Part shown: piece by piece, positions 6,382-62,450 of the stretch
Layout of the letters: every line of letters begins with the position of its first letter
How positions within the stretch are numbered: position 1 is the stretch's first letter
Notes under the pieces: model-generated
What the model saw: only the letters and a program-made list of their open reading frames with translations
Told to the model about the DNA's origin: nothing
The model's database searches: none
Translations under genes and position numbers: made by a program
IMG/VR virus record: IMGVR_UViG_3300042401_001747
Direction: 5' to 3' (one strand)
From: a virus
DNA length: 64,000 nt

Positions 6382-6452
6382 GTAACATACAGTAGCGCAC
6401 AAATTGCCCCAAATGCACTAAGGGCTTTAATTGATTGGTCAATATATATCTC

Positions 6453-36528: not shown

Positions 36529-37587
36529 CTACGAAAGCTCGTAGAAACCTTTTCCCCATAGACCCTGCAAACGAGTAAAATACTTCTCGTACATCTTTCC
36601 CACGGTGTCTAATCCGTAGCGGTCTTTTGAGTATTTACTAATCGCCGCTCTATCAAGAGTCTTGACGTCCTCAGTTGCGTCAGCGAACTCTTGCATCGTG
36701 TGACAGCGAAATCCGGTCACTCCGTCGATGACTGTTTCAGTGAAAGCACCCCAGTCTGTAGAGATAATTGGAGACCCACAGGCCATCGCTTCGATAGCTA
36801 CGGTTCCAAAAGGCTCGACGTAAATAGTTGGCGTAAATGTGGCAATTGCACCACCCATTAGCTTGGCTCGCTCTTCTGTCCCTACAACTCCAACATACTC
36901 CCCATAGTTGGGCGCAGAACCCTGTCCAGCGACCACCAGACGCTTTCCTAGGGCCTTACAGGTGTCAACTGCAATCTGATAGCCCTTGCGCTCAATAAGG
37001 CGTCCTATGAACAAATAGTAGTCATCTGGCGTTTCCTGTAAAGGGAAGTCTTGAATATCAATATAACTTGGGATTACCGTGTCGTAGAACTTTCCATCAA
37101 GGGCATGGGGGTCGGTCACTTTCGACCCGTAGCAGGAGTGCATCCACGCATAGGACTCAAAGACCTTGAATGGAGCGAACGACCCGCCATAACCAATTCC
37201 GAACTCCACGCTTAGTTCGTCAGGAAAAGCATCGGCTATTGGCTTGGATGCAAAACCAGCAATAAGGCAAATAAAGTCTTTGTGCTCCAGGCGCTCTTGA
37301 ATGCCTTTGACTACGTTGCCATTAAACTCAACCCAATGTGGGAGGTTCCAGTCAAACGACGCAGCCGAGTAATGATTCGGTCCTACGGCTTCTAGACGCT
37401 GTTCTTCGGTAATACAGGTGATGTGCTCGTCACAGGGGGCTTCGTTGAACTCGCCGCCATACAGAAACACGGTATGCCCGAGGTCTTTCATCATGATGCA
37501 GAACTTACGGACTTTCTCCGTATAGGCACATGCCGTGAAGTCTTCAGTCGTGTTTGTGTGAGGAAGGGAAACTACATGAAATCTCAT
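36529..37587 (-). CDS. Glycosyltransferase (GT-B, GT4-like)
   Basis: YLFIGRLIERKG, EPFGTVAIEAMACGSPII, ETVIDGVTGF. Confidence 0.92.
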   Translation of the reverse strand: MRFHVVSLPHTNTTEDFTACAYTEKVRKFCIMMKDLGHTVFLYGGEFNEAPCDEHITCITEEQRLEAVGPNHYSAASFDWNLPHWVEFNGNVVKGIQERLEHKDFICLIAGFASKPIADAFPDELSVEFGIGYGGSFAPFKVFESYAWMHSCYGSKVTDPHALDGKFYDTVIPSYIDIQDFPLQETPDDYYLFIGRLIERKGYQIAVDTCKALGKRLVVAGQGSAPNYGEYVGVVGTEERAKLMGGAIATFTPTIYVEPFGTVAIEAMACGSPIISTDWGAFTETVIDGVTGFRCHTMQEFADATEDVKTLDRAAISKYSKDRYGLDTVGKMYEKYFTRLQGLWGKGFYELS

Positions 37588-37602
37588 GCAGAAATACTAC
37601 TC

Positions 37603-38298
37603 TTATTTATCAGTATCCCGCAATGAGAGAGAATGAAAAATCCTAGGGTCGTCAATAGAAATTCTCTCCCCATTTAGTTCCACAAAATCATCAGGGACGG
37701 CTTGTGAGATAAGCCAATCCTGTAAGGATTCGTCAATCAAGAAGGCGTCTTCGTTCTGGAGTTGCGCTTTTGTGTCGCCCGTCAAGTACTTAGAAATTTG
37801 CATTGGAGGATACGCGTTAAGAATGTGCTGAATTAGTTCTTCGGGCATATTCATGTCTTCTAAAAGGGCGGTAGAAATTTCACTGCACTTATCCAAGTTG
37901 TTGAACGGCTCTTTAGCCACTATTGACCATTCAACCATAAGCCTAATTAATTCACCAAATGAGTTTGCTCCAAAAGGCAGTGCTTGAGATTTGATTTGCT
38001 GATTCACTTCATCGTCTTTGAGTTTCAAATAAATGATGTAGCCATGAGGTGGGAGAGAGTAAAGAATTTCAAACTTGTCTATTTCGTCAAGAGACGAAAA
38101 TAGAACCGTTCCCATAGATTTGTTTAAATCCGTTTCGTTATTTCTTGGAGCAATCGGACCCCAGTTATTAAAATCGCACCTATCCGATGCTTCCGAGTCG
38201 TTGATGAGTTTTGCTGCAACTATTGCAAACACTCCGTCATTGTGTATAGACAAATACGGCAAAAACTTAGAAACATAAAATTTAATGTTTGTATTCAT
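37603..38298 (-). CDS. Hypothetical protein (paralog of 44649..45311)
   Basis: Shared EWS...EPFN core. Confidence 0.7.
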   Translation of the reverse strand: MNTNIKFYVSKFLPYLSIHNDGVFAIVAAKLINDSEASDRCDFNNWGPIAPRNNETDLNKSMGTVLFSSLDEIDKFEILYSLPPHGYIIYLKLKDDEVNQQIKSQALPFGANSFGELIRLMVEWSIVAKEPFNNLDKCSEISTALLEDMNMPEELIQHILNAYPPMQISKYLTGDTKAQLQNEDAFLIDESLQDWLISQAVPDDFVELNGERISIDDPRIFHSLSLRDTDK

Positions 38299-39560
38299 TA
38301 AAAATACGCTTCTTCAAAACCAATAACTGCGCCTTGAGCACCATTTCCGCCTGAAAGAATGCTGTTAACAGTACTACCAGAGCCTGGGTCGGTATTTGCA
38401 TTAGACGACACAACACTTTGCGCCATATAAAAAATTAAACCGCCGCCGCTACCACCGCTGCCGACAAATTGCGGTGCATTGTTGTAATTATTATTATCTG
38501 GCGCGCGACCGCCAGTCGCGCTAAAATAAATATTTGCGATTGCTCCTCTTGCAAACACAATTCCTGACCCGCCGACGCGCGACACTAAAGAATAACCATA
38601 AATCCTAGTAGGCGAAATGTCTAGTGAATTACCTTGAGGCATTCCTCCACCTCCAGTAACGGTAATTGTTGTTCCAACTTTCCCGTTTGGGTTTTCTGCT
38701 GACTCTCCATGAGAACCAGCAACCCCTACCCCGCTGTTTTGATAAGTATGGATAACTGAGTAAGACCCACCGCCACCGCCTCCGCCTCCCCATGCAGTTG
38801 CCCTAAACCCTGCAGAACCAATCCCTCCAACTGAATTTTCCGATGCACTCATCCCTGAGCCTCCATTGCCAAAAAACATCTTTCCGTCCGCTGACGGGGA
38901 CCTCTTAGAAGGTGGTTGAGTGCCTTCAGTACTGGAATACGCAGAAGACACTATGTACTGAGCCTGTGCATAAGTAGCGTCTCCTGTCTTTGCAATTCTT
39001 GGATAATAATACGCTCCCGCAGGAGAAGATATGATAGTTATGTCTTCCGCAGGCTGGTCGGTGGAGTTACTTCCGTGAAAATAAAACCCTGCAATACCGC
39101 CACCAGAAACAAGCGAACCATTTGATATGTTCCCGTTAGCGTAAATACAAGTTAGTTTTTTTCCTACAATATCCGCATTTAAAGAACCTGTATAAAAATA
39201 CAAACCAGGAGACAGTGAGATATCACCATTAACAACCAAGAAAAAACATTTACTTCTATCTGTAGAGGAATATGTATTAACTCCTGATGTTTCCATTGTT
39301 GTAATAGAAAGAGAAGATGCAGAGTAGTAGTACTCATATGCCCCAAGGTTTGCTCCGTTAATCCAAAGGTTCCCAGTTGGTGCTTGTTTTCCTGCAATTC
39401 CAAATTTGAGAATGTACTCAGCAAAGTCTTTTACAGAAGGAAAGTGTTGGTCACCTTCAACGCTGCCTCCAGAAGTGGGGGCGTTGGGCATGGGGATATC
39501 AATAAGTTTTGTGGACTTATAGGGCTGTAAAGCCGTACGGAGATATTCCTTTGTGGTCAC
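38298..39560 (-). CDS. Gly-rich virion fibre-like protein
   Basis: GGGGG runs; GGSGGGLIF..GGNGAQGAVI C-terminus. Confidence 0.7.
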   Translation of the reverse strand: MTTKEYLRTALQPYKSTKLIDIPMPNAPTSGGSVEGDQHFPSVKDFAEYILKFGIAGKQAPTGNLWINGANLGAYEYYYSASSLSITTMETSGVNTYSSTDRSKCFFLVVNGDISLSPGLYFYTGSLNADIVGKKLTCIYANGNISNGSLVSGGGIAGFYFHGSNSTDQPAEDITIISSPAGAYYYPRIAKTGDATYAQAQYIVSSAYSSTEGTQPPSKRSPSADGKMFFGNGGSGMSASENSVGGIGSAGFRATAWGGGGGGGGSYSVIHTYQNSGVGVAGSHGESAENPNGKVGTTITVTGGGGMPQGNSLDISPTRIYGYSLVSRVGGSGIVFARGAIANIYFSATGGRAPDNNNYNNAPQFVGSGGSGGGLIFYMAQSVVSSNANTDPGSGSTVNSILSGGNGAQGAVIGFEEAYF

Positions 39561-39563
39561 GAC

Positions 39564-41681
<2,118 letters not shown>

Positions 41682-41772
41682 GCCTGCAATTATACCCTGA
41701 ACTGATTAAGGGGAACCATAAGAAACAAGGTGGCAATATAATGCCAATTGAAGAAATCAAAAACTATGGTCG

Positions 41773-42039
41773 TTACGCTTCCAACGCTGCTTTAGCAGCT
41801 AGGTATGCTGCTCTCTGCTCATTTTGGTCATACACGGGAGCGTCATAAGCATCCCCGTTGTCCTTTATTGCCTGAATGGTTTCTTCAGCCCATTGTTCAG
41901 CGTCTTCTTTTGTCCACGGCATCCAGTTATGGGGGAAGTTAAATTGACTTATTGTGCGAGAAAAAGAAGAACCATTAATTTCCCCAGTCCATGTAATGGT
42001 TGCTTCATTTTTGTCGTCTACTTCATATGTGTATTCCAT
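41773..42039 (-). CDS. Small hypothetical protein (possible fibre chaperone)
   Basis: 88 aa; AAGGAG RBS. Confidence 0.65.
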   Translation of the reverse strand: MEYTYEVDDKNEATITWTGEINGSSFSRTISQFNFPHNWMPWTKEDAEQWAEETIQAIKDNGDAYDAPVYDQNEQRAAYLAAKAALEA

Positions 42040-42048
42040 AATGTCTCC

Positions 42049-43071
42049 TTAAACTACATACTCAATAATGACAGCGCCATTTGAACCCATTTTTGCAGGG
42101 GTAGTTCCTGTGTAGCCGTTAGCCATGCCTACATTAAACGAGTAGACAGTAGATGGAACAGTGGTTACTTGAAAAACTTCCGTTACTCCATCTTGCCCAC
42201 GACCTGCATACGCCTTTGCAGTAACCACCACGCTTACATAGTCACCAAATTCCTGCTCCACGGCTGCATTCGCTGAAGCAGTTGCCCAGCCCCCAACACC
42301 CCCAGAGCCAGGGTATCTATTTTCTGCGGTCCAAGAACCTGTTTGAGTGCTAGAACTTCCTGCAAGTTTAGTTCCAAAAGAGCCACCAGGAGCAGTAGTG
42401 GTGTCAATTGCCCCCATTACCCCACCAAGAGCCGTATATGTAGTGCCGCCAACAACAAAGGTCGTTGAGCCACCATCTTCGTAGCCTGTAAGGGAAGCAA
42501 CGCTTGATTGCCCATTAGAGGTTGCCGTTGCTGTGGCAAATCCCCCTCCCCCGCCTGCACCAATAAGTGTCAATTTTATTTGTGTGACACCAGCAGGACA
42601 AGTCCATGTTCCGCTTCCGTTTGTTGTGTACTTTGTAACATAAATTTTGGGGTCCACAGCACTGACCCCAGGCACTCCGCTAACCCCAGGCACGCCACTA
42701 ACACCAGAGACACCTTGTGGGCCTGTTACACCGGTCGGTCCTCCCGCAGGACCCGTGGCTCCCGTTAAGCCAGTCGGACCAGTCGGACCTGTCAGACCAG
42801 TGGGCCCAGCTATCCCTGTTGGTCCAGTAACACCAGTTGGTCCGGTAATTCCTGTTGGCCCTGTTGCCCCAGTCAAACCTGTTGGTCCAGTTATACCAGT
42901 AGGCCCAGTGGGACCCCCTGCAGGCCCTGTTGCTCCTATTGGACCTGTCGGGCCAACAACGCCTACTGTACTGACGTTAAGAACCCATTTACCTCCAGTG
43001 AATGTCCACGTCTTGGAGTTCGCGGTAAAAGACGCTCCCGGAGATGGTGCGTTTGGGAAATCAATAGCCAT
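42049..43071 (-). CDS. Collagen-like fibre with Gly-rich C-terminal domain
   Basis: MAIDFPNAP; G-P-T repeats; [27 protein letters not shown]. Confidence 0.85.
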
Positions 43072-43105: not shown

Positions 43106-43402
43106 CTAGAACCACCAGAAGTGTTTTAGGATAGACAGACTAGCCAGAATTACCCACGCGACATTGAAAAGAATGATTGTTGGAAGGGTCTTTTCCGTGG
43201 ACGACCAAATGAGGGCAATGCTGGAAGCGATGGCAAATATGTAAACCCACCACCACTGTTGACCAAGAAGCAGACCAGGGAAGATAATGGCGATTTTGGT
43301 GGCAAATCCCCAAGCCTCCACGATGTTTGGTTTAGTCCAATACCCCTTATGGGACATTGTCTTTGTTGCTTGTATTACTTTTTGCAGCATCTTTATAACC
43401 AT
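43106..43402 (-). CDS. Small membrane protein (about 3 TM)
   Basis: Three hydrophobic segments; overlaps the P450 stop. Confidence 0.65.
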   Translation of the reverse strand: MVIKMLQKVIQATKTMSHKGYWTKPNIVEAWGFATKIAIIFPGLLLGQQWWWVYIFAIASSIALIWSSTEKTLPTIILFNVAWVILASLSILKHFWWF

Positions 43403-44640
43403 AGAAAAGGATTAATATATTTCTTTTTTTGTTTAATGTTTATAGAGCGTGGTCCCCATACAGATTCGTATGATTCTCTGAATTGTGCTTCCCCCACGAT
43501 TGAATAATCGCCAATTCTCTTTGCAACAACCTTCATGCACTCCTGCATTTGTGCTCTAGCTAAAGCAGCACCTAGGCAATAATGGATTCCTCCACCAAAC
43601 GAAAGGGTTGCGCCTTTTCTGTTCGGTCTATCAATGATGAACTTTTCAGCATCTTTAAATACTGATTCATCATGATTTCCTGCAGTTAAAGTAACCCCCA
43701 TGATGGTTCCTTTAGGAAAAAGAACATCGTTGTATTCAATATCTTCAGACGCGATTCTAATCATGTACCTAAATACACTGTCTAGACGAATGCACTCTTC
43801 TAGTATGTCTTCTACGTTTTCTTCATTGCGGAGCATTTCTAACATTTCTGGTTTGTCTTCCAGCATGATTGCAATAAGCCCAAGTTGACATCTGGTCGTG
43901 TCTATACCAGCCAAAAGAACCGCGTTAATTAATAAAGATATTTCAAGAGTTGTAAGTTTTTCCCCGTCAACTTCCGCCTTAATCAAAAGGCTAGTTAAGT
44001 CGTCTGTTGGGTTTTCTCGTTTTTCAGCAATCAGTTTACGAACATATGCAGACAGCTGAGCCTGAGTATCTACTACAACGTCCTTGTCGTGGTCGTAGTT
44101 TCCGCCGAATGTCTTGAAAACATCATCAGCCCACTGACCGAACATTTGCCAATCCGAATGTGGGACTCCAATAATTTTAGAAATGATGTAAGACGGGTAC
44201 TTATCAAACACTTCTACTTGCAAGTCAAATTCCGAAAGGTCAGAAATCTCATCAATTATTTTATTAATTGCTTTGTTCATTTCAGGACGCAATGAGTCAG
44301 CAACTTTTGGAGAAAATACAGGCCCTACAATTTTTCTAAGACGAGCGTGGTCTAGCCCTTCAAGGTTGATTATTGACTGTTTTCTATTGGCCTTATCCGA
44401 TTCGCTAAGGTGAGGGTTGTTTTCACTAAAAAGATAGAGGGCGTTATGCCATCTCTTGTCTTTCAGCATTGCCAAAGAATGCTCGTGATTTATAACGACA
44501 AAAGAAAGACCCGAAGAAGCCAGCCAGTTTTCCTTGCTGGCATTGAGTGCTATTTCTAGTTGCTCGTATGTACCGTGTTCGGATTTTATTATCTTAGGGA
44601 CAACATAGGGAAGTTCTAGGTCGTTTACATTTACTGGCAT
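43393..44640 (-). CDS. Cytochrome P450
   Basis: DHARLRK..FSP, I-helix AGIDTT, K-helix EECIR, heme motif FGGGIHYCLG. Confidence 0.95.
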   Translation of the reverse strand: MPVNVNDLELPYVVPKIIKSEHGTYEQLEIALNASKENWLASSGLSFVVINHEHSLAMLKDKRWHNALYLFSENNPHLSESDKANRKQSIINLEGLDHARLRKIVGPVFSPKVADSLRPEMNKAINKIIDEISDLSEFDLQVEVFDKYPSYIISKIIGVPHSDWQMFGQWADDVFKTFGGNYDHDKDVVVDTQAQLSAYVRKLIAEKRENPTDDLTSLLIKAEVDGEKLTTLEISLLINAVLLAGIDTTRCQLGLIAIMLEDKPEMLEMLRNEENVEDILEECIRLDSVFRYMIRIASEDIEYNDVLFPKGTIMGVTLTAGNHDESVFKDAEKFIIDRPNRKGATLSFGGGIHYCLGAALARAQMQECMKVVAKRIGDYSIVGEAQFRESYESVWGPRSINIKQKKKYINPFLWL

Positions 44641-44648
44641 TTGTTCCT

Positions 44649-45311
44649 TTAAAAGTCTAAGGTTTCTTCAAAAGACTTTTGTTTGTATGTATTGGCAAGT
44701 TCTGTAATCCATGCCTTGAATTCTTCTGACGCTTCAGGATACGGGTGAGGAATCATTTTGTAATCTTCTTCACCTTTAAAAAATTTAGCCAGATGCATGT
44801 CTGGTAATGAATCCAGTTCATCAAGAATTGATTGAGGTGGGTCAAATGTGTCAAGAGCGAGTTTTGAGTATGTAGCCATTGGGTGGTCGGAGTTAAATGG
44901 CTCCCCAACAAGAAAAGACCATTCCCTCATTGTCTTGAAGAATTGGAATACGGATTTTGCTATCCACATGGACGAAGGAGTTGGGTCAGCCTCTATGTCG
45001 GCCCAGGTTGCGTACTCTATATAAGTTATATAAAAATGGGGCGACACATCCATTATGTGCTCGTATCTAGTAATCTTTTTTACTTCCATGATTCCTTCGG
45101 AAACCAAAGACCGTGAATACGGCGTAATGCTGTGATTCTCGTAAGGTGTTCCATGGGAAACAAGTATTCCAGTGTACGAAATATTGTCACAACGAACAGA
45201 GTCTCCAGAATTTGAATTTTGGTCTTCAGTTAAAAAAAAGCATTTTTCAATAAAGAACCCTCCCTTTTTTGTAGGGTCAGACTGTTTTAACAGTTTTTCT
45301 GGTTCAAGCAT
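44649..45311 (-). CDS. Hypothetical protein (paralog of 37603..38298)
   Basis: MREWSFLVGEPFN..LPDMHLAKFFKG. Confidence 0.7.
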   Translation of the reverse strand: MLEPEKLLKQSDPTKKGGFFIEKCFFLTEDQNSNSGDSVRCDNISYTGILVSHGTPYENHSITPYSRSLVSEGIMEVKKITRYEHIMDVSPHFYITYIEYATWADIEADPTPSSMWIAKSVFQFFKTMREWSFLVGEPFNSDHPMATYSKLALDTFDPPQSILDELDSLPDMHLAKFFKGEEDYKMIPHPYPEASEEFKAWITELANTYKQKSFEETLDF

Positions 45312-45576
45312 TTTTTAATTCATCCAATTTCTTGTTCACAATTTTTAATTTTTCCATATCGCGAACGATAGTGTTTGTAGCCCCCCATTGCAACCGTTCC
45401 GGGCGCGAAGCGTTATCAAGGTGACTGGAAACAAACCCTACAGGGTCAAAATTTGAAAAATCCAGCGTTTCTACATCAATTCCAAAAATTAAACAACAGT
45501 AATATATGTTTTTGTGCAGGGAAACTACAAGAGCCTCTAAAAATGCTATTTTTTCAGTATTTGTGTTAAAACCCAT
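45304..45576 (-). CDS. Small helical protein (paralog of 48881..49111)
   Basis: K...L....SL..NIY..L..GID.E..; ends LKIVNKKL. Confidence 0.6.
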   Translation of the reverse strand: MGFNTNTEKIAFLEALVVSLHKNIYYCCLIFGIDVETLDFSNFDPVGFVSSHLDNASRPERLQWGATNTIVRDMEKLKIVNKKLDELKNA

Positions 45577-45578
45577 AC

Positions 45579-46385
45579 CTACATATTATCTGAAAAAAAC
45601 CTAGAGATAATGCCCTTCTTCTGCGAGGCTAAATCAGCAATTTCTTTATCAACTCTTATACGCTCTCTTCTGTAGGGAGCAGCGGTTCCCTCAAAAGGCA
45701 TAATATGCCCTGTTCCAAACCCTTTGCTTGCAACATATTTAAAATTTGTTTCGTCCGCAACAATTAGTTTACCAATGTTTGTTTTGCGCTCAAAAGGTAT
45801 CAACTGCGCCAATGGGGTTCCCCATTTAATTGAAAAAGCAGATTCGGCTTTAATGTTTAAAACAATGTTGGCTGTATGGTAAAAATCAGTATGAACTACG
45901 GCAGGCAAAACATCGTAGTCTTTATTTGGTTCCCACATAACTGGAAGAATCAAAACAGACCATCCTGGTGCGGTTTCCACCCTCCACGGGTTAACGAGTT
46001 TTGGATACTGAGCCTCTGAGAATTCACTGTTTCTTACTGCACTAACTGGACATTCTCCTGTTGCAGCAAAAGGGAAAGACTCTACTGCCCCTATGCTTAT
46101 TTCACTTTGCTGGAGCCCAAAGTTTGCCCCTCTTGTTTCCCATGAACCATCTTGTCCTGGTCGGAAATTATAGTTTGTCCAACAAGGTATGGTTAATCCA
46201 ATACTAAGAAAATCATTTATTCCCGCACATCTACGAAGGGACCCAGGATTTTTGTGAATCCTTTTAAACCATGCTGGCTGTGTTTCAACCGAATTAATGA
46301 ATGGAGGCATCTCGTTAAGCCTGTTGTCTATTGGCGTTATGCGAATTTCTCCAGGTTTTAGTTTTTTGTTCTTCACAAAACCCAA
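45579..46385 (-). CDS. Uncharacterised beta-rich protein often found with phage 2OG oxygenases
   Basis: PAWFK..RRCAGI.D..G..IP.W, NPWRVETAPGWS, VVHTD, IKWGTPLAQLIPF. Confidence 0.65.
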   Translation of the reverse strand: MGFVKNKKLKPGEIRITPIDNRLNEMPPFINSVETQPAWFKRIHKNPGSLRRCAGINDFLSIGLTIPCWTNYNFRPGQDGSWETRGANFGLQQSEISIGAVESFPFAATGECPVSAVRNSEFSEAQYPKLVNPWRVETAPGWSVLILPVMWEPNKDYDVLPAVVHTDFYHTANIVLNIKAESAFSIKWGTPLAQLIPFERKTNIGKLIVADETNFKYVASKGFGTGHIMPFEGTAAPYRRERIRVDKEIADLASQKKGIISRFFSDNM

Positions 46386-47881
46386 TCTTCGTCAACCGTA
46401 TGCAGGTTCTTTAGAGCCTGAGCATGGTCAATAAGTTCGTGGTTGTTGCGAGACTCTCGCATTTTTGAAACTTCATTTTCAACATCGCGGCGTATGTTTA
46501 ACCTGTCTATCATTCTGGTTGCAGGCTCTGAAGAAAAAACGCCCTGACCTTGAGCAACATGGGCAATATGTGGAGTCAAAAAAAGTTCCATATGTTTATG
46601 TGGCACATCTGAGCGATGGGGCGGTCTTTCTGACCAAATATCCAAAAGTTCTTGAAGTTCGTCATTCACGGGCATTTCGGACATTGCTTTCCAAAAGAGA
46701 GTGTCTGTTCTGTCGCTATAATAATGAAGCCTAATCATTGTGAGAATGTTTCTCATCACTTCGCCGTATGCTTTGTTGAAGTGCTTTTGTGATTTTGTAT
46801 AAGAACTTTCGTAAGAAGCCAAGTACGGTATCATCATTTTAATTTGCTGAATAGAAGAACCAATGCTTGTGGCTTCTAGTGGCTCAACAAAAGAACCAGC
46901 AAGACCTATGGCAACACAGTTTTTAACCCACGGTGATTCCATGTAGCCAGCATCAAATTTAATGAATTTGTGGGTTGATATTTTATAACCAGACCTTTTT
47001 TCTGCTTCAGCAATTGCTTTTTCTTCATCACAAAACTGAGAGGAAAAAACATAACCATTACCTCGCCGTTGCTGAGTAGGTATTTCCCACATCCACCCGT
47101 TATCCCCAGCAATTGCCCGTGTGTATGGTCGTATTTCTCCAGAGGGGTCTGATTCAGTGGGAAAAGCAATAGCAGAATCTGAAAGAAGATAATCGTTAAA
47201 CGAGTTCCATTTGGAGTTTCCTAGTTTTTCCATTAAGACTTTTTTAAAACCAGAAGCGTCAAACCAGAAATCTGCCTCCACGGATTGTTCGTTATCTGTT
47301 AAAACGGACTGTATGTTTCCATTTTCGTTGTTGACTTCAATTGAGTCAACTATTCCTTCAACAAATCGTATGTTCCGTTTAAAGCAAAGAGAAATAAAGT
47401 ACTCATTAAGTTTGTGAGTATCAAAATGAAACTGATTAGTAGAACGATGCAGGCCGTTGACTCTGATTTTGTTTTTTACTAAACCGACAGATGTCGTTTG
47501 GTTAGTAAACAACTTGTTGCTTTCTATAAAACTTGCATATGTTGCGTGTGCCCCCCACGCAAAAAGTTCATCAACATCACTAACGCTATGAAAATACCTT
47601 GGGGTGTGTGTGGTCCAGTTTTCATAACTAATACCGTATTTGTGAGTTGCGTCTGTGGAAACAATCATATCTTCAAGGTCAATATCACAATGACGCATAA
47701 ACTCTGACCAGTGCTCAGTACTGCCTTCACCGACGCCAATAATACCTATCTGAGAAGATGAGATTACTGTTATCTCTGCATTACTAAACGCTTTTCTTAG
47801 CATCAGTGCGGTTATTAGGCCAGCAGTTCCAGACCCAACGATTCCGAATGACAGTTGTTTTGTTTGTTCTCTCGTGCTCAT
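46373..47881 (-). CDS. Flavin-dependent (tryptophan halogenase family) halogenase
   Basis: GSGTAG, IGVGEGS, catalytic-position Lys in ATHKYGI, DASGF, WMWEIP, FVEPLEATS; ATGA overlap with upstream gene. Confidence 0.92.
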   Translation of the reverse strand: MSTREQTKQLSFGIVGSGTAGLITALMLRKAFSNAEITVISSSQIGIIGVGEGSTEHWSEFMRHCDIDLEDMIVSTDATHKYGISYENWTTHTPRYFHSVSDVDELFAWGAHATYASFIESNKLFTNQTTSVGLVKNKIRVNGLHRSTNQFHFDTHKLNEYFISLCFKRNIRFVEGIVDSIEVNNENGNIQSVLTDNEQSVEADFWFDASGFKKVLMEKLGNSKWNSFNDYLLSDSAIAFPTESDPSGEIRPYTRAIAGDNGWMWEIPTQQRRGNGYVFSSQFCDEEKAIAEAEKRSGYKISTHKFIKFDAGYMESPWVKNCVAIGLAGSFVEPLEATSIGSSIQQIKMMIPYLASYESSYTKSQKHFNKAYGEVMRNILTMIRLHYYSDRTDTLFWKAMSEMPVNDELQELLDIWSERPPHRSDVPHKHMELFLTPHIAHVAQGQGVFSSEPATRMIDRLNIRRDVENEVSKMRESRNNHELIDHAQALKNLHTVDEDWVL

Positions 47882-48453
47882 TGAAACCAAGTTACCATAG
47901 AGTATTTCGTTCCGCTAATCACTGGATGCGCTATGTGTGTATAGGGGAAATTACTGGGAAAAAGAATTACAGAGCCAGCGTTCAATTTAATTTTTACATC
48001 AAAATTTGGGAACTCAAGTTCGCCACCTTCGTCAGGTTCTCCGAGGCATGCAACCAAACTGAAAACCCTTCTTGAGTCAGGGGAGTGGTCATGATGTGCG
48101 TGATACTCAGCAAGTCCTGAATATTTAAGTATGGATATCAATTCATGTGCTCCATTGAAAAGTCTGTGTTCTCTTACATAGTCATGAACAACATCAATAG
48201 TCGGTCTATACACTTCTTTTCTAAAAACTGATGACAGTTCATCCTCTGGATATGGCGGGAGAAGTGTTGTTACAGAACTGGATAAAGAGGTTCTGTATTG
48301 GCTATTTTCACCATTTCCAACCCTGGATACATCCCAGCAAAGGTCTTCGCCAAAACCGTTGGCTATTGCTTCTTCAAAGCGATTAATAAAATTGCTTGGG
48401 TTAAACACATCTTTATAAATAGAAATGCAAACAGCGGGATTATCTACAATCAT
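47878..48453 (-). CDS. 2OG-Fe(II) oxygenase (prolyl-4-hydroxylase-like)
   Basis: ILKY..YHAHHD, GGELEF, LFPSNFPYTH..PVISGTKYS. Confidence 0.92.
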   Translation of the reverse strand: MIVDNPAVCISIYKDVFNPSNFINRFEEAIANGFGEDLCWDVSRVGNGENSQYRTSLSSSVTTLLPPYPEDELSSVFRKEVYRPTIDVVHDYVREHRLFNGAHELISILKYSGLAEYHAHHDHSPDSRRVFSLVACLGEPDEGGELEFPNFDVKIKLNAGSVILFPSNFPYTHIAHPVISGTKYSMVTWFQ

Positions 48454-48878
48454 AAAACTTCAAAAACTCCTTCGGCCAATATCTTTTTTTCTTTTTCAAC
48501 AAGGCTTGTAATTAAAAAAGAATAACTACCTTCATCATAGAATCTTTCTCTATATTGAAGTACATGTCTTTCTTTAATGCGAGGCTTTAAGGTCTTGACA
48601 TTTCCGTCGGGAAGTTTTAAATCAAGTTGCGTACTTTCATCAAAAATAGAAAATTCGTCTAAATAGTCAAAAGATTGTATAAATCCAGCACGAACTTGTT
48701 TGTCATATGAAACGCCCCTGCCTTCTGGTATCTCAATAACCTGAATCGCGCCATACCTAGAATCGTCTTCATCCCCAACCTGTATTCCAAGTTTTGCTTC
48801 TCTGGACAACAAAATAGCCTTTTCAGGTATTTTACCGTTTTCCAGCAAAGAAAAAGGGACATAAATTTGTCTTTTCAT
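48450..48878 (-). CDS. Hypothetical protein
   Basis: 142-aa ORF translationally coupled in the cluster. Confidence 0.65.
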   Translation of the reverse strand: MKRQIYVPFSLLENGKIPEKAILLSREAKLGIQVGDEDDSRYGAIQVIEIPEGRGVSYDKQVRAGFIQSFDYLDEFSIFDESTQLDLKLPDGNVKTLKPRIKERHVLQYRERFYDEGSYSFLITSLVEKEKKILAEGVFEVL

Positions 48879-48880
48879 TA

Positions 48881-49111
48881 TTAAATAGTTGACAACTTTT
48901 GTTTTACTACAGAAAGAGACAAAAGCAACTTTTCAAGACGAAGAACTTCTCCATCAAACCCTGGAATTCTTAATTCTTCAATATCTGATTCTTCAAAAAC
49001 CTCTGGGTCAACCCCGACTCTTAGAAGAGTGTTGTAGATTTCATGACTCAGTGTTACTTCAGCGTTTTGTAAAGACTGAAGTTTTTGTTCTGTTGTTAAA
49101 TTCAATTCCAT
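48881..49111 (-). CDS. Small helical protein (paralog of 45304..45576)
   Basis: AGGAG RBS; LSHEIYNTLLRVGVDPE..LSVVKQKL. Confidence 0.65.
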   Translation of the reverse strand: MELNLTTEQKLQSLQNAEVTLSHEIYNTLLRVGVDPEVFEESDIEELRIPGFDGEVLRLEKLLLSLSVVKQKLSTI

Positions 49112-49118
49112 GATTCTC

Positions 49119-50798
49119 CTATAAATTAATCAAAATGTATGCTGCCCCAGAAGAAGCCGCAAAGTTGTCGGAATCAGCGGTTAAACCAGCCCGAGTGTCG
49201 TATGTAATTGTACCCGCTACAGAGTCGCTAACTACGAGAATAGCACCTCCGCCACCTGCGCCGCCTCTTTTGCCATTAACCCCTGGTTGACCACTTGTAC
49301 CAGTTTGTGCAGGGGCTGCAGCACCACCCGCTCCTCCCGCACCACCTATCCAGTGACCATTCGGTTGGGCTGTGGCAGGGTTGGCGTGATGGCTCCACCG
49401 ATTCAGGTCCATTACACCATTGCCATAATGGTGGGGTCCATGATGGTGTCCGCCACTCGCCTGCATTCCTCCACCTTGGCTTACACCGTTTCCTAGGTCG
49501 TGACCGTTTGCGTAGCCAGCATGTGTGTGTCCTGGATGGGCATGACCCGCATGAGCATGGCCGTCGGTCCCCCCTGCGTGAAGATGCTCAATTCTTCCAT
49601 GAAAAGTGCCAGTTGTTGCAGGGTGCGAATGTTGATAGGCGTGATTTGCCTTGTAGTGAGTTCCCGCGTATCCAGTGGGTGCGTAATAGTGTATACCCCC
49701 GTGACCATCATTTGAGTGAGGGTGATGTCTACTCCCCGTATGGTGGTAGTGGTGAGAGTTGTAGTTTCCCGCGGGTAGATGGGAAAATTTTCCATCATGT
49801 GCAGCGCTGTATGGATGCGGGTTTACGCCATGTGCGTGGAAATCTGAAAAAATAGCACCACCATGATGATGGCTAGGGTTATGTGTTGCAGGCACAGGGA
49901 CTGGGGCTATATGGTATGCCAAATCGGGAGCCTTGGTTCCTGGGGTACCTGCAGTTCCAGCGGTGCCAGTACTCCCTGCGCTCCCTGCAGTTGCTGTACC
50001 TCCAGCAACACCAGACCTGCCAATAGACATAAAAGTTCCAGAACCAACAATATGTTTTGCAATGATACAAACGACTCCGCCTCCGAGACCACCAGTACCT
50101 CCTGCACCACCAAGACCTCCCGCCCCACCAGCGCCAGCAGTCATTCCAGTCACATTTCCACTTGCGCCAGTATTTCCTTTACCTGCGGGTGCGCCTACTG
50201 ACTCACGATGAGGGTTTGCTGCCCCATTGCTTCCAGTTGCGGCACCAGCAGTTCCTGCGGTTCCAGCCTTCCCAGGCCATGTGTCACCGTTCGTAAGAAT
50301 CGCTGATGTTCCACTTGCGCCGTTAGCACCTGTAGTTCCTACTGTTCCTCCGGAACCTCCACCGATAGGAATCATCCCCGATGTGTGCATGAACACTCCA
50401 CCAGACATTGCGTTTATGTCTTTAACAAGAAAACTTGGCAAAACTGGAATGTTCGGGTTCGTAGAGCCACCACCCTGACCGCCAGCACGATATGAAATGG
50501 CGGACTGACCTTTGACTGTCCCATCGCTTACTGCGGATGCCGTCTCACCAACAACCCCACCGGAGACGGAACTCATACCAACATGACCGTTGATGGTCAG
50601 TGTATTTTTAACGAAAATCCTGTATCCGTTTGTAAAAAGTATTCCACCGCTTTGAACATCAAGGTTGTTGTAATGCATGTCTGAAGTAATAGTGACAGTA
50701 GTGCCAGAAGGGATTACAACATTTCCATCTAAACCAGTTCCATAGATAGCATCATTGCCTTCGCGCGCGACGCTTTTTTCAATTCTAGAAATAGCCAT
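49119..50798 (-). CDS. Gly-rich virion protein with a ~190-aa His-rich insertion
   Basis: N-terminus shared with 50800..51564 (IYGTG.DG..NGYRIFVK); about 40 His between ~49350 and 49920. Confidence 0.8.
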   Translation of the reverse strand: MAISRIEKSVAREGNDAIYGTGLDGNVVIPSGTTVTITSDMHYNNLDVQSGGILFTNGYRIFVKNTLTINGHVGMSSVSGGVVGETASAVSDGTVKGQSAISYRAGGQGGGSTNPNIPVLPSFLVKDINAMSGGVFMHTSGMIPIGGGSGGTVGTTGANGASGTSAILTNGDTWPGKAGTAGTAGAATGSNGAANPHRESVGAPAGKGNTGASGNVTGMTAGAGGAGGLGGAGGTGGLGGGVVCIIAKHIVGSGTFMSIGRSGVAGGTATAGSAGSTGTAGTAGTPGTKAPDLAYHIAPVPVPATHNPSHHHGGAIFSDFHAHGVNPHPYSAAHDGKFSHLPAGNYNSHHYHHTGSRHHPHSNDGHGGIHYYAPTGYAGTHYKANHAYQHSHPATTGTFHGRIEHLHAGGTDGHAHAGHAHPGHTHAGYANGHDLGNGVSQGGGMQASGGHHHGPHHYGNGVMDLNRWSHHANPATAQPNGHWIGGAGGAGGAAAPAQTGTSGQPGVNGKRGGAGGGGAILVVSDSVAGTITYDTRAGLTADSDNFAASSGAAYILINL

Positions 50799-50799
50799 A

Positions 50800-51564
50800 T
50801 CACACCTGCGACATATAGTAGACGGTGCCTGCGTTTTGACCAGTTACATCTGTGGTGATTCCAGAAGCCAATGTTTCGGCAGAAGAAACAATGAGTATTA
50901 CTCCTCCGCCTGCAGGTGCATTTCCTGGTGCCTTGATGTAAGCAGTACCTGACGCAGGACCGCTGATGTAACGAGCGGCAAGGATGATTACACCACCACC
51001 TGCTTGTGCAGTTCCTCCAGCGCCTCCACGAAGAAAAGTCGGTCCACCAGATGCTGTAATTGAGTATCCAGTTACTGCTTGATGAGGCACTTGAAAATAA
51101 GCGGAACCACCCATATTTGAGTGAGGCGCTGTTGCTGTGAATCCAGTAGCTGAACCGCCAAGTGAGTGAGTAACGGCGGTAGCGGCTGCTCCGCCTTGCT
51201 TGATTGAGCCTTCGGTTGAGTATCCAGTTGTAAAACCAATCGTGGAGTCGGTTCCCATAAACTTCAATGTGCCTTTAACGAAGATTCTGTATCCGTTTGG
51301 CTGCAGGCGACAACTCGTGTTAATCGTCAAATCGTTGAAGTACATGTCGCGGGTCATTGTGTAGACACTTGCAGATGGAGCCATGCTTAGAACGGTCGTA
51401 GTTCCGTCCAGTACGGCATCACCGTCAGCACCTGTTCCGTAGATAGAGTCAACGCTTTCGTTGAAGTAGGCGTTCCAGACTGTTCCGTCCCATTGCCAAC
51501 TCTTAGAGCCGACAGTATAAATCTGATTTACATACGGAGAAGCAGGAAAAGTAATTGCTGACAT
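50800..51564 (-). CDS. Gly-rich virion protein (paralog of 49119..50798 without the His insert)
   Basis: AITFPASP..WQWDGTVW start; IYGTGADG..NGYRIFVK; GGGVII motifs. Confidence 0.78.
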   Translation of the reverse strand: MSAITFPASPYVNQIYTVGSKSWQWDGTVWNAYFNESVDSIYGTGADGDAVLDGTTTVLSMAPSASVYTMTRDMYFNDLTINTSCRLQPNGYRIFVKGTLKFMGTDSTIGFTTGYSTEGSIKQGGAAATAVTHSLGGSATGFTATAPHSNMGGSAYFQVPHQAVTGYSITASGGPTFLRGGAGGTAQAGGGVIILAARYISGPASGTAYIKAPGNAPAGGGVILIVSSAETLASGITTDVTGQNAGTVYYMSQV

Positions 51565-51567
51565 CGT

Positions 51568-52863
51568 CTATTTCCTGTACCCATAGACAGAAACGGTTCC
51601 AGTTATTGAACCAGCACTTGGTATCAAAGAAAATCCAGTGCAAACAGTTGCTGAATTATGTCTAATTGCAGAAGTAAGGTTTAGTCTTGTTAAGGTTGCG
51701 CTCGCATTACTTACCGCAACTTGCCCAACCAAATTTGTCTCACGACTTAGGTTGGCACCAAAAACATCGTAACTAGCGGAACCACGATAAGCAGCGACAC
51801 ATCCACTTATGTATCCAAAAGTTTCACTTTCATTAGCAGAGTTGTTGAATCCAGCGAATGTACCAGTTCCACTTGAATAATAAGAACCACCAGAAGTGAA
51901 GCCATAGTTGCTAGATATGAGACCACCACTATCACGCAATTTAATTTGCAAGTTGCCATTGGTTGTATTCTGAAGCCACTCAATTTCAATACGGTAGTTG
52001 TCAAACTCTGAAGAAAAACAACTTGTTGCATCTGCTTGGGTTGAAGAACTGAAAGAAATAGTTTTTATTAACTGTAACCCTGGGGGCGTATCGGTATCCG
52101 CAATCATTACCCACGCCCCACCATTCCATACAATAAGATTGTTCGTATCTGTTTCGTAAGCGGTTTGACCAGTCCACGGAGATGACGGATGAGTAGACGA
52201 AGTAACTTGCATTGGCGACATGGAACCGCCACCTAGTTCAACCCATGCCGAGTTGTAGTAAATGTAAGTAGAACCAGTAGATGTATCAAACCAAATATCG
52301 CCAGCAGATGGTGACGCTGGGGCGGTTGCAGAACTTGTTATTGGAGCACCAGCACCTGTCGCGCCAGTTGCGCCAGTCGCGCCCGTTACGCCAGTAGGAC
52401 CCGTCGGTCCTGTCGGCCCTGTAACTCCAGTTGGACCAGTAGCACCGATTGGAACTACAAAGTCAAGTACAGCAGCACCAGTGGTTCCGCTGTTGGTTAC
52501 AGCGCCTGTTGCCCCATCAGTAGTTGTTCCTACCGTTACGGTTGCAGAGACTCCAGTCGGACCTGTTGCGCCAGTTAAGCCTGTCGGACCTGTTGCTCCT
52601 GTCGCACCGATGGGTACAACAAAGTCAAGTACTGCGGCACCAGTAGTTCCGCTGTTTGTGACAGCGCCGGTCGCTCCACCACTTGTAGTGCCAACCGAGA
52701 CTGTCGCAGCAACACCAGTAGGTCCTGTCGCGCCTGTTGCACCAATAGGACCAGATAGGTCTGTATAGATGACAACCCATTTTTCTCCATCCCACTTCCA
52801 AGTCTTTCCTGAAAAAGAATGAAGGTCGTTTGTGAGTGGTGAGTTTGGAAAGTCAATAGCCAT
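51568..52863 (-). CDS. Collagen-like fibre protein
   Basis: MAIDFPNSP; two [15 protein letters not shown] units; G-X-T repeats; AGDIWFD; [17 protein letters not shown]. Confidence 0.85.
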
Positions 52864-52865
52864 GG

Positions 52866-53762
52866 TTAGTACTTAATGATGTAGTTGAGCGCTAGGAATG
52901 GGTCCACCGTTGCAAGTGCAGTGTTTGTAAATCCACCGTTGCCTGAATCAAAAGGGGTAATATTGACATCATGTTGGTGATAAGCACTACGACCACCAGA
53001 AGTAAAAGGGGCAATATCTGTAGTATGTTGGTGATAAGCACTGCGACCAGTTGATGTTACATTGCCAATATTCACACCGTGCACATGGCCTATCGCATCA
53101 TAACCTGACACACTATTATTTTCATCATTTATTCCACCAGTTGTTGCTCCAGAACCAGTACCAGTCAGAATGGCACGGTTTGTACCAGCAGTAGCAATTT
53201 GAGCGGCTTTGTATGAGTGGGTGTGGCTACCATTAGCAGAATGGTAATGACCATCAGCACCTCCTGAATTTGTGTTTGCTGGGTCAACATCATGAGTATG
53301 TCCAGGGTCGTCGTTTCCAGATGTTGTAATTGGTGGGTCTATGGAGTGGGTATGCTCAGTATTGTCGTTTCCAGATGTTGTATTTGGTGGGTCAATAGAG
53401 TGAACATGTGTTGGAAGGTTACCTGAAGCAATAACAACGCTTTCAGCGCCACCTGTTGCCGCTAGTGCTCGTGAGGTTAATCCCGTTCCAGCACCTGCCC
53501 CTATTGGCATGCGGCTACGCATGTCAGGAACATTGAAAGTAGTTGTTCCATCTCCGCTTCCGTATGTTGTGCCTACTAGTGCCCAGAGGTTTGCGTAGGT
53601 TGTCCTGCTTACTGCTGCTCCGTTGCAGAGAAGCCATCCTTCTGGTGAAGTTGCACCCGCATATGGCATTAACCCACCTACTGGAATTAACGGATAACCG
53701 CCAGCACTGTTGTCATCAGCAACAGAGATTCCTTCTTTGACTGTAAATCTAGTTCTTGCCAT
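52866..53762 (-). CDS. Tail-collar domain fibre with HxH needle
   Basis: [24 protein letters not shown]; eight HxH motifs; LNYIIKY; start at ATG 53762. Confidence 0.88.
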
Positions 53763-53764
53763 CT

Positions 53765-54115
53765 TTATTCTTCCTCTGTTGTAGGTGTGCTTGAGACAAC
53801 AGTCCACGGAATGGCGTTATTGTTTAAATCCCAATTATTCCACGAAACAGGGCGACCCGATTCTGGTGTTACTGGTAACTGAATGGTGTTTTCAAGAGGA
53901 TAAGAAACAGTAGAAGTGATGTCTCTCATCTCTTGTCTCCAGACGCGCCAATCGTTTTTAATCTCTTCAGAAAGAGGGCAGTCTGGCATTTGTGTCCAGT
54001 CTGACTCTTTTAAAAGAACATCACGCATTTCACGAAGCGCTTGAACAAGTTCTTCTTGAGTTATTGCCGATTTGTCTGTAGTGCCTAAAGGCCAACCGTA
54101 AATTTGAATTAACAT
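53765..54115 (-). CDS. Tail fibre assembly chaperone
   Basis: LREMRDVLLKESDWTQMPDCPL..WRVWRQEMRDI. Confidence 0.85.
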   Translation of the reverse strand: MLIQIYGWPLGTTDKSAITQEELVQALREMRDVLLKESDWTQMPDCPLSEEIKNDWRVWRQEMRDITSTVSYPLENTIQLPVTPESGRPVSWNNWDLNNNAIPWTVVSSTPTTEEE

Positions 54116-54116
54116 G

Positions 54117-56249
<2,133 letters not shown>

Positions 56250-59722: not shown

Positions 59723-60376
59723 ATGAATGATATTCAGTGGACTTTTGGAATAGTCACAGGATTCGAAGATAATCAAAGACTTGCTGAGATAATTGATTCA
59801 ATAAGAAATTTGTCTATTCCTGAATATGAAATTCTCCTTATTGGTGGAGATAGCACCGAATTTATTAATTCTAACGAAAACGTAAGGATTGTTTATTTTG
59901 ACGAATCACAAAAACCTAGATGGATAACCAGAAAAAAGAACATTCTTGCTAACGAAGCAAAGTACGACAATATCGTTTTAATGCACGACTATCACGTTTT
60001 TGATAAAGACTGGTATATAAATTTTAAATCTTTTGGTTTGGATTGGGAAATATGTTCATGTCCTCAGTATTTGATTACTGGAGCCAGAAACCCAATGGAT
60101 TGGTCACTTTGGGACAAGCCAGACCACGGCAGGGCATGGTCTCTCGATTATGACGACTGGTCTCAAACTCAGTACATGTACATCTCTGGCGGATTTTTTA
60201 TAGTTAAGAAACACGTTCTGCAACAAGAGCCTCTTGATGAATCTCGAGGTTGGAACGAAGAAGAAGATGTTGAATGGTCCATGAGAGTACGCAACAAGTT
60301 CCTCATGAAATGTAATGGCGGAAGCGTTGTCAGACACAATAAGTGGCATAGGCATGCCGGTCCGGAGCCTCAATGA
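59723..60376 (+). CDS. Glycosyltransferase (GT-A/GT2-like)
   Basis: TFGIVT, EYEILLI, KKNILA..AKYDNIVLMHDY, EEEDVEWS. Confidence 0.8.
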   Translation: MNDIQWTFGIVTGFEDNQRLAEIIDSIRNLSIPEYEILLIGGDSTEFINSNENVRIVYFDESQKPRWITRKKNILANEAKYDNIVLMHDYHVFDKDWYINFKSFGLDWEICSCPQYLITGARNPMDWSLWDKPDHGRAWSLDYDDWSQTQYMYISGGFFIVKKHVLQQEPLDESRGWNEEEDVEWSMRVRNKFLMKCNGGSVVRHNKWHRHAGPEPQ

Positions 60377-61746: not shown

Positions 61747-62450
61747 AAAAGACAAAAACGGACTACCTGTCCATGCAAAATAAGTATTATGACGAATATG
61801 CGAGTCAGTGGTCGCTGTCTTTCAGAGACCCTGTAGTTGGTTCGTACGATGCCCACAATAACTGGTCAGACTATGACACAGTTTTGTTTAAGGACTTTGA
61901 CACAAACGGTTTAGTTGCTCTTGAATATGGATGTGGTCCAGGACGAAACCTTGTGAAGTTTTCTGACCGTTTTGCAAGAATCGACGGAGTAGACATCTCT
62001 GATATCAATATTGAAAAAGCAAAGATAAATCTAGAACATAACAATATTTTTGACTCAAACCTTTACGTCACAAGTGGTGACAATTTGTCAATGATAGAAG
62101 AAAATACGTATGACGTTGTTTTTGCTGTTATTTGCTTTCAGCATATTTGTTCTCACGAGATTAGATTTAATATTCTTAAAGATATTTATCGAGTCCTAAA
62201 ACCAGGAGGAAAGCTTTGCTTCCAAATGGGGCACGGGGGTAAAGACGGAATTCCTACTGCTGGATATTTCGATGACATATTTGATGCGGCAAGCACTAAC
62301 GGGCATGCGGACGTAAGCATTACAGAAGAAGCAGACATACAAAAGGACCTCGTTGACGAGATTGGGTATACCAACTACAGGTCAGATATCAGAGATACTG
62401 GCCCTGGAGACAATCACAGAAACTGGATATGGATTCAGGTTGAAAAATGA
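61743..62450 (+). CDS. Class I SAM-dependent methyltransferase
   Basis: LEYGCGPGR, GVDIS, YDVVF, RVLKPGG. Confidence 0.9.
   Translation: MKKTKTDYLSMQNKYYDEYASQWSLSFRDPVVGSYDAHNNWSDYDTVLFKDFDTNGLVALEYGCGPGRNLVKFSDRFARIDGVDISDINIEKAKINLEHNNIFDSNLYVTSGDNLSMIEENTYDVVFAVICFQHICSHEIRFNILKDIYRVLKPGGKLCFQMGHGGKDGIPTAGYFDDIFDAASTNGHADVSITEEADIQKDLVDEIGYTNYRSDIRDTGPGDNHRNWIWIQVEK

Follow-up and report, generated by a model that had tools for sequence, protein, structure and literature searches.

What are a flavin-dependent halogenase, a 2-oxoglutarate (2OG)-Fe(II) oxygenase and a cytochrome P450 doing between the tail-fibre genes of a phage? The question is raised by the IMG/VR virus record IMGVR_UViG_3300042401_001747, of which a stretch of 64,000 nucleotides (nt), here called the window, was analysed. 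Positions 43106-51564 of the window hold 11 tightly packed minus-strand genes (spacing between neighbours -13 to +8 nt) within an unbroken minus-strand gene run (36.5-57.8 kb), and fibre genes of the collagen-repeat, tail-collar and fibre assembly chaperone types stand on both flanks of this block. An original prediction, made without database searches, had described the minus-strand gene order, which was borne out by the coordinates of the open reading frames (ORFs) and by Pfam, and had placed the enzymes inside a fibre operon outside any nonribosomal peptide synthetase or polyketide synthase (NRPS/PKS) context, which holds as well, since no such context was found in the block. Our comparative analysis points, tentatively, to a virion-protein maturation module in the late tail-fibre operon, and it is the linkage data that lead us to favour a pair of Gly-rich proteins together with the enzymes as the functional unit.

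Linkage of the enzymes to a Gly-rich protein pair

The pair consists of the short protein gly254 and the long protein His559, which carries a His-rich insert. Related loci were collected from IMG/VR with the halogenase as seed (36 loci), with the P450 (9 loci) and, independently of the enzymes, with gly254 (80 loci); a second scan was seeded with divergent gly proteins. The survey, which covers part of the approximately 370 relatives reported by each scan, comprises 95 distinct loci, 67 with and 28 without a halogenase gene. Every gly254-seeded locus with enough downstream DNA encoded a His-dense long paralog (defined by at least 10 His in some stretch of 60 amino acids (aa)), a halogenase (51-73% identity), the protein u268, the small membrane protein mem98 and usually a 2OG oxygenase. 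The Gly-rich pair was found together with the halogenase, u268 and usually the 2OG oxygenase in 67 distinct loci. The co-occurrence of the enzymes with a His-rich fibre-type protein, expected by the original prediction, was therefore upheld for the halogenase and the 2OG oxygenase, through rearrangements and one cassette swap, and failed for the P450, as described below.

The association persists when the surroundings change. Gene order is altered in several loci (L028, L091-L099 and L107-L110), yet the set stays linked, and the block is kept in the 67 distinct loci while the fibre genes beside it, as well as u220, sh90 and the P450, are present in some and missing from others. Locus L049 (IMGVR_UViG_3300032291_002077) has flanks with 78-91% nucleotide identity to the window on both sides, and the intervening stretch that encodes the insert, sh76, u142, the 2OG oxygenase, the halogenase and u268 (window positions 45579-49900) is exchanged as one divergent block. 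Its oxygenase, halogenase and u268 are 50-60% identical to those of the window, sh76 and u142 about 30-34%, and its long paralog has 655 aa; judged from these alignments, L049 is a cassette swap.

The 28 halogenase-free loci, recovered by the second scan, form one sister clade. All of them keep 2OG genes (one or two per locus) and 27 of the 28 keep u268-like genes (zero to three per locus; none in L199), often two of each. A His-dense long paralog was found in 64 of the 67 loci with a halogenase as against 1 of the 28 without, and in the latter clade the long paralog reached a maximum of 0-10 His per 60 aa. The deepest core of the cassette is the Gly-rich pair with a prolyl-4-hydroxylase (P4H)-like oxygenase and the protein of predicted dUTPase fold, u268; the halogenase and strong His-richness join in one large branch.

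Two further sets of loci are described here for their gene content. In the halogenase-free loci L157 (8614-17744) and L188 (8353-16796) the long Gly-rich paralog comes first, two 2OG and two u268-like genes are present, and the last gene of the block is an 87-aa ORF that looks ferredoxin-like by eye in its N-terminal CxxDGxC stretch. The distant cyanophage-like contigs L041 (6400-18200), L045 (2900-16700) and L030 (3300-15700) repeat the theme on a much larger scale: three tandem Gly-rich (PF21722) proteins have as neighbours three to four halogenases and at least seven 2OG oxygenases. In L041 and L045 these clusters also include a u268-like gene, which abuts halogenases; none was detected in L030.

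Halogenase and 2OG oxygenase

The halogenase matched PF04820 with 343.5 bits (cutoff 21), and its PDB relatives include the viral halogenase VirX1 (6qgm, E 1.7e-44). Pattern search located GSGTAG at residues 19-24 (GxGxxG FAD site), K84, GWMWEIP at residues 265-271 (WxWxIP) and FVEPLEA at residues 334-340. K84 aligns with the Lys of 6nsd, and both K84 and the Glu of EPLE are invariant in 35 sequences. By motifs and profile the enzyme is intact. A flavin reductase was not recognised among the window ORFs scanned.

The 2OG oxygenase matched PF13640 with 47.6 bits (cutoff 27). Candidate residues of the HxD...H...K set were read by eye in YHAHHDH (residues 117-123) and in THIAHPVISGTK (residues 172-183); the roles that we take individual residues to have are in part those familiar from the P4H family. 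The nearest solved relatives are the P4H enzymes of B. anthracis and PBCV-1 (E 8e-4 to 5e-3).

Gly-rich pair and His-rich insert

gly254 and His559 are paralogs (E 5e-14). The N-terminus of gly254 carries an FPxSP...KxWxWxGxxW module that is common to three neighbouring collagen and collar fibre proteins, and His559 is called fibre-type because of its paralogy to gly254. We infer that both proteins are of fibre type and located in the virion; the label of fibre, which the original prediction had given to His559 outright, is kept in this more cautious form.

The AlphaFold2 model of His559, built with 37 orthologs, has a predicted local distance difference test (pLDDT) score of 82-98 over residues 20-295 and 480-559 and of 31-44 over residues 300-479, so that the insert is modelled as a loop of a confidently folded scaffold. 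The scaffold gave weak beta-helix or beta-solenoid matches (Z 5-7), and a Foldseek search of the model against PDB returned nothing significant. The insert was found at residues 300-479 with the YHH and YQH motifs that had been noted before; His makes up 22% of it. Across orthologs its sequence is hypervariable and its composition is retained (11-26% His).

Several other features of the insert and its scaffold were weighed. HxH motifs are enriched about 2-fold in the clade of the window (10 observed vs 5.1 +/- 2.0 expected) and not enriched in distant orthologs; as a sign of a metal needle resembling gp37 this is weak and limited to one clade. The likeness of His559 to the gp38 receptor-binding domain (Z 4.7 with 6f45_D and 4.3 with 9v85_C) lies within the range of noise. 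The Pro content of the insert was considered in relation to loss of the 2OG gene. The two tabulated loci without this gene have 2 and 6 Pro, and counts of 5-6 also occur in loci retaining it; the events are too few, and low counts are found with the gene present.

P450

The P450 matched PF00067 with 93.1 bits (cutoff 22.8) and has AGIDTT at residues 244-249 (I-helix), EECIR at residues 281-285 (ExxR) and FGGGIHYCLG at residues 348-357 (Cys-ligand loop FxxGxxxCxG), all located by pattern search. Its nearest solved relatives are ordinary class I small-molecule enzymes (E 4.5e-43). A ferredoxin or reductase partner was absent from the 40 window ORFs scanned, among which small ORFs were not exhaustively covered.

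In contrast to the core genes, the P450 is present in 7 of 47 judgeable loci and absent from 40, with at least five gains or losses on the tree; it is an optional extra outside the conserved unit. Where it occurs, it sits in every case between u220 and mem98 and belongs to one of two lineages that are 28-42% identical and lie on opposite strands. That different P450s have repeatedly come to occupy one site is a hint of some use in that position. A 60% identical P450 is encoded at 10001-11233 of L010, a 267-kb contig of jumbo-phage size, among small non-structural genes unmatched to the cassette, and the P450 lineage of the window appears from this comparison to move among phages independently of the fibre block. 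A 559-aa ORF in the neighbourhood of the L010 gene is helicase-like by eye.

The original prediction had made the P450 a member of the cluster, with the Tyr-His links that P450s form at YxH in biarylitides as a known parallel. This was not supported: the gene is not conserved, and loci with a P450 do not have higher YxH counts in the insert, with Tyr, Trp and Cys counts likewise patternless. The gap from the u220 stop to the P450 start is 8 nt, which rules out a biarylitide-type mini-precursor directly upstream, small ORFs elsewhere not having been searched. A biarylitide-type P450 system was rejected on account of this gap and of the many related loci that lack the gene.

Companion proteins

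The 268-aa protein u268, listed as unknown in the original prediction, is by model and profile a protein of dUTPase fold. Its model (pLDDT 83) matched dUTPases in Foldseek with E of about 1e-4 (8.6e-5 and below) and in VIA-align with a root-mean-square deviation of 3.0 over 118 residues and a Z of 9.5, which is near the level of chance arrangements. Among 19 matches of its profile 17 were dUTPases, all weak (E 0.05-1.4), and the profile alignments show weak traces of dUTPase motifs 3-5. In the HMMER alignment His165 stands in place of the first Asp of the motif-3 'DSDY', which we take to be a catalytic residue of dUTPases. Viral dUTPase folds have often been repurposed, and the fold matches include herpesvirus tegument proteins; u268 may be read as such a repurposed fold. 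The start of its gene overlaps the stop of the halogenase gene.

The small proteins sh76 and sh90, described before as paralogs, are alike, but weakly so (33% over 45 aa, pairwise E 5e-5); sh76 is possibly a fibre chaperone. Neither they nor u142, u220 and mem98 have a Pfam match even at E 10 or a PHROG match. Profiles of u142 and u220 found nothing meaningful among PDB sequences, and a search of 5.8 billion proteins with the u142 profile recovered its own family alone (25 homologues, none with a Pfam domain). mem98 resembles DUF6552/CBU_0592-like small membrane proteins in language-model features. It is 74-98% identical in aa sequence among relatives, far above the halogenase, and closes the block in nearly all loci. 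u220 is present in 20 of the 47 loci, including all 7 with a P450, and is a paralog of g231 (37603-38298; about 23% identity, tblastn E 1e-9). g231 lies directly upstream of a GT4 glycosyltransferase gene, as u220 lies directly upstream of the P450 gene.

A candidate maturation cassette and its alternatives

According to the reading that we favour, the Gly-rich, beta-solenoid-like paralogs would be made together with the P4H-like oxygenase, the VirX1-type halogenase, the dUTPase-fold protein and the small helpers. gly254 would carry the N-terminus by which the neighbouring fibres dock, and His559 the 180-residue insert, predicted to be disordered. During fibre assembly the oxygenase would hydroxylate and the halogenase would halogenate exposed residues of the paralog pair, with the exposed insert as the most plausible target, and the P450, where present, would contribute an additional oxidation. 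The modification might tune adhesion, metal binding or stability. We infer the Gly-rich proteins as substrate, and the chemistry done on them, from gene content, intact motifs, packing and linkage. Actinophages (mycobacteriophages) reportedly modify their own virions by glycosylation with phage-encoded enzymes. The favoured reading is further supported by the oxygenase, whose nearest solved relatives are peptidyl-prolyl hydroxylases. Peptide halogenases are reported to use disordered regions of their substrates (PMC10858898), and in VirX1 the active site is large and open and no native substrate is known (PMC8407142).

A number of observations weigh against such a maturation cassette. W468 is the only Trp of the insert (W483 lies just past its C-terminal edge) and Tyr residues are few, and the flavin halogenases known to us use Trp, Tyr or pyrrole, not His. 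gly254 and His559 match no known virion protein family (Pfam to E 10, PHROGs, tblastn against GenBank phages), and u268 has the predicted fold of a nucleotide enzyme. Because the loci are all from one phage lineage, the linkage may partly reflect inheritance of the block. The halogenase state changes exactly once on the tree of the N-terminal scaffold; its association with His-richness is for this reason a single contrast to which no p-value is attached, and the link is suggestive. Finally, a RiPP (peptide made by the ribosome and modified after translation) recognition element, a leader, a peptidase and an exporter were not found by Pfam (to E 10), by the u142 and u220 profiles against PDB or by the protein-database search with u142. 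The cassette may work like a RiPP system, as the original prediction proposed, but it should not be filed as one, because the candidate substrate is a protein of 559 aa rather than a short precursor with leader and core, and no recognition element was found.

The enzymes might instead be auxiliary metabolic enzymes whose substrates are free small molecules or metabolites of the host, as cyanophage halogenases are usually read; they would stand beside the Gly-rich pair since the fibre slot tolerates cargo, with the block inherited whole. In published work, phage halogenases and 2OG oxygenases are counted as metabolic genes (PMC3037559; PMC10452541), VirX1 halogenates many small aromatics (PMC8407142), and the cultured cyanophages P-SSM2 and S-SCSM2R carry their halogenase among metabolic genes, not fibres. 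The small-molecule relatives of the P450, its homologue in the non-structural context of L010 and the single event that accounts for halogenase presence on the tree fit the same explanation. Against it speak the retention of the block in 67 distinct loci despite the turnover of flanking fibre genes, u220, sh90 and the P450, and a linkage that outlasts rearrangement; moreover, scaffold-building or transport genes for a metabolite were not seen in the scans of window ORFs, and clusters of halogenase and 2OG genes with Gly-rich proteins recur in distant phages. We regard a purely metabolic role as possible and somewhat doubtful.

The insert could also remain unmodified and serve as a metal- or receptor-binding loop, with the oxygenase hydroxylating the adjacent GPT/GAT collagen-like fibres and the halogenase acting on another component of the virion or host envelope. 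Collagen-repeat fibre genes do surround the block, the solved structures closest to the oxygenase are those of collagen-type P4Hs, and hypervariability is a feature of receptor-binding loops. The halogenase-free clade, which retains 2OG and u268-like genes, shows that these are independent of His-richness, and the HxH enrichment in the clade of the window would suit metal binding there, but it does not extend to distant orthologs. Furthermore, the 2OG gene moves with the insert cassette and not with the collagen genes, which vary among loci, and strong His-richness coincides with the halogenase in nearly all of the loci surveyed. This arrangement of targets is, in our judgement, improbable.

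That the halogenase and u268 act on a nucleotide or nucleobase (e.g., a modified base) in a role unrelated to the fibre is suggested by the dUTPase fold with its weakly recognisable motifs 3-5, the gene overlap and the u268-like genes abutting halogenases in L041 and L045, but is highly improbable given His165 at the presumed catalytic position, the persistence of u268-like genes in nearly all halogenase-free loci, by which u268 is no dedicated halogenase partner, the frequent repurposing of viral dUTPase folds (with tegument proteins among the matches) and the fact that other nucleotide-metabolism genes were not found in the block.

The maturation reading can be carried a step further. It has been known since 2005 that viruses encode halogenases, and one of them, VirX1, has been characterised in vitro, but what they act on in nature and what they do for the phage is not known so far. 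The cassette family offers a concrete candidate substrate, encoded three genes away. VirX1-family halogenases with companion 2OG oxygenases might naturally act on the Gly-rich surface proteins of the phage itself, the target here being the disordered His-rich loop and u268 a repurposed assembly or targeting subunit; this is a speculative proposal, and on present evidence a rather unlikely one. If it is true, some phages have hydroxylated and halogenated receptor-binding structures, which would add a new class to the post-translational modifications of virions, and the purpose of viral halogenases would be answered. If a fibre protein is modified, host recognition by phages gains an unrecognised chemical layer (hydroxylation, halogenation, possibly cross-linking), and the enzymes are natural tools for protein halogenation. 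If it is not, the conserved linkage of the Gly-rich pair with a 2OG oxygenase and a dUTPase-fold protein is still an undescribed phage module.

Locus and phage background

The features of the block and its surroundings are collected in Table 1.

Table 1. Genes and features of the cassette and of its flanks in the window.
Feature	Coordinates	Strand	Description
gly254	50800..51564	-	short Gly-rich paralog; N-terminal FPxSP...KxWxWxGxxW module; without Pfam or PHROG family
His559	49119..50798	-	long Gly-rich paralog; beta-solenoid-like scaffold and His-rich insert; orthologs in every related locus
His-rich insert of His559, residues 300-479	49362..49901	-	39 His/180 aa; predicted disordered or unmodelled
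sh76	48881..49111	-	small protein directly behind His559; retained in most related loci
u142	48450..48878	-	family-restricted protein; 4-nt overlap onto the 2OG gene
2OG-Fe(II) oxygenase, prolyl-4-hydroxylase-like	47878..48453	-	PF13640 3.4e-12; phrog_61
Flavin-dependent halogenase, Trp-halogenase/VirX1 type	46373..47890	-	PF04820 2.6e-102; alternative ATG start 47881
u268	45579..46385	-	predicted dUTPase-fold protein, C-terminal helix; phrog_7084; alternative start 46376
sh90	45304..45576	-	small protein, weak sh76 paralog; presence differs among loci
u220	44649..45311	-	g231/u220 family member; precedes P450
Cytochrome P450, bacterial class I type	43393..44640	-	PF00067 2.2e-26; accessory, patchy distribution
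mem98	43106..43402	-	small Trp-rich membrane protein; conserved end of block
Upstream fibre genes	51568..56219	-	collagen-repeat col431, tail-collar collar313, fibre assembly chaperone g116, collagen-repeat colF700
Downstream genes	36529..43071	-	fibre genes col340, collar457, col123, then g231 (u220 paralog) and glycosyltransferase

The window is assigned to a phage because it encodes terminase, portal and tail sheath. Megablast of the region found no match and hence no near relative among GenBank phages, and tblastn with the P450, His559 and gly254 found none there either. The sheath and terminase are closest (37-44% aa identity) to myoviruses of Gordonia, Arthrobacter and Brevibacterium, which makes an actinobacterial host a reasonable guess, and no more than that. 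By these similarities the phage is an uncultured myovirus with a structural core resembling those of actinobacteriophage myoviruses. For the large terminase (6435-7766), psiM2 and psiM100, phages of Methanobacterium/Methanothermobacter, are among the best matches from cultured phages (about 44% aa identity), together with phages of Gordonia. A scan of genome contigs with the gly254 alignment gave one match, on a 3-kb contig of a metagenome-assembled genome, which holds no host clue.

Among the head and tail genes are also a gene resembling 3'-phosphoadenosine-5'-phosphosulfate (PAPS) reductase (phrog_2302; 12773-13912) and a gene for a ParB N-terminal domain (11697-12560). The window has no transfer RNA genes. 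Promoter and terminator sites were no more frequent than in shuffled sequences, and therefore no internal transcription unit is claimed.

Comparison with known systems

In the literature searched we found no phage virion described as modified by oxidation or halogenation. Virion glycosylation in mycobacteriophages resembles the present case in that phage enzymes are encoded in or near structural operons, but the chemistry there is glycosylation. The window itself encodes a GT4 glycosyltransferase (36529-37587) in the fibre operon and, a short way beyond the operon, a fusion of HAD hydrolase and nucleotidyl transferase (60373-61746; sugar-nucleotide synthesis) and an S-adenosylmethionine (SAM) methyltransferase (61743-62450). 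Its virion proteins could also be glycosylated, as in some mycobacteriophages.

Two phage adhesin systems share features of the long paralog. The T-even gp38 adhesins likewise combine a Gly-rich scaffold with a hypervariable segment, but the structural match is weak (Z 4.3-4.7). The HxH iron needle of T4 gp37 is, like the insert, a His-rich segment with HxH motifs; the enrichment found here is modest and confined to one clade.

The collagen P4Hs of PBCV-1 and B. anthracis offer a parallel for the oxygenase, being small PF13640 enzymes beside Gly-rich or collagen-like surface proteins. Their similarity to the enzyme of the window is weak (E of about 1e-3), and the gene of the window goes with beta-solenoid Gly-rich proteins, not with any one collagen gene. 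Biarylitide P450s, which form a Tyr-His cross-link in MxYxH pentapeptides, compare with the P450 of the window in its closeness to a YxH-containing sequence. They differ in that the 8-nt gap leaves no room for a mini-precursor here, the P450 is optional, YxH counts are unlinked to it and its nearest solved relatives are ordinary class I enzymes.

The RiPP halogenases SrpI, MibH and ChlH share with the cassette an enzyme gene adjoining that of a ribosomally made substrate and, as reported, disordered regions that guide modification. They act on Trp of short, leader-bearing precursors, whereas the candidate substrate here is a structural-type protein of 559 aa, and a leader, recognition domain, peptidase and exporter were not found in our searches. 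The closest known counterparts are VirX1 and the cyanophage halogenases (6qgm), which have in common with the enzyme of the window the Pfam family, the FAD motif, the catalytic Lys, WxWxIP, the Glu of EPLE, viral origin and a native substrate that is not known; the best-matching cyanophage enzymes are only 36-38% identical to it. In P-SSM2 and S-SCSM2R the halogenase lies in metabolic surroundings, whereas that of the window is fixed in a fibre-operon cassette together with His-rich, P4H-like and predicted dUTPase-fold proteins.

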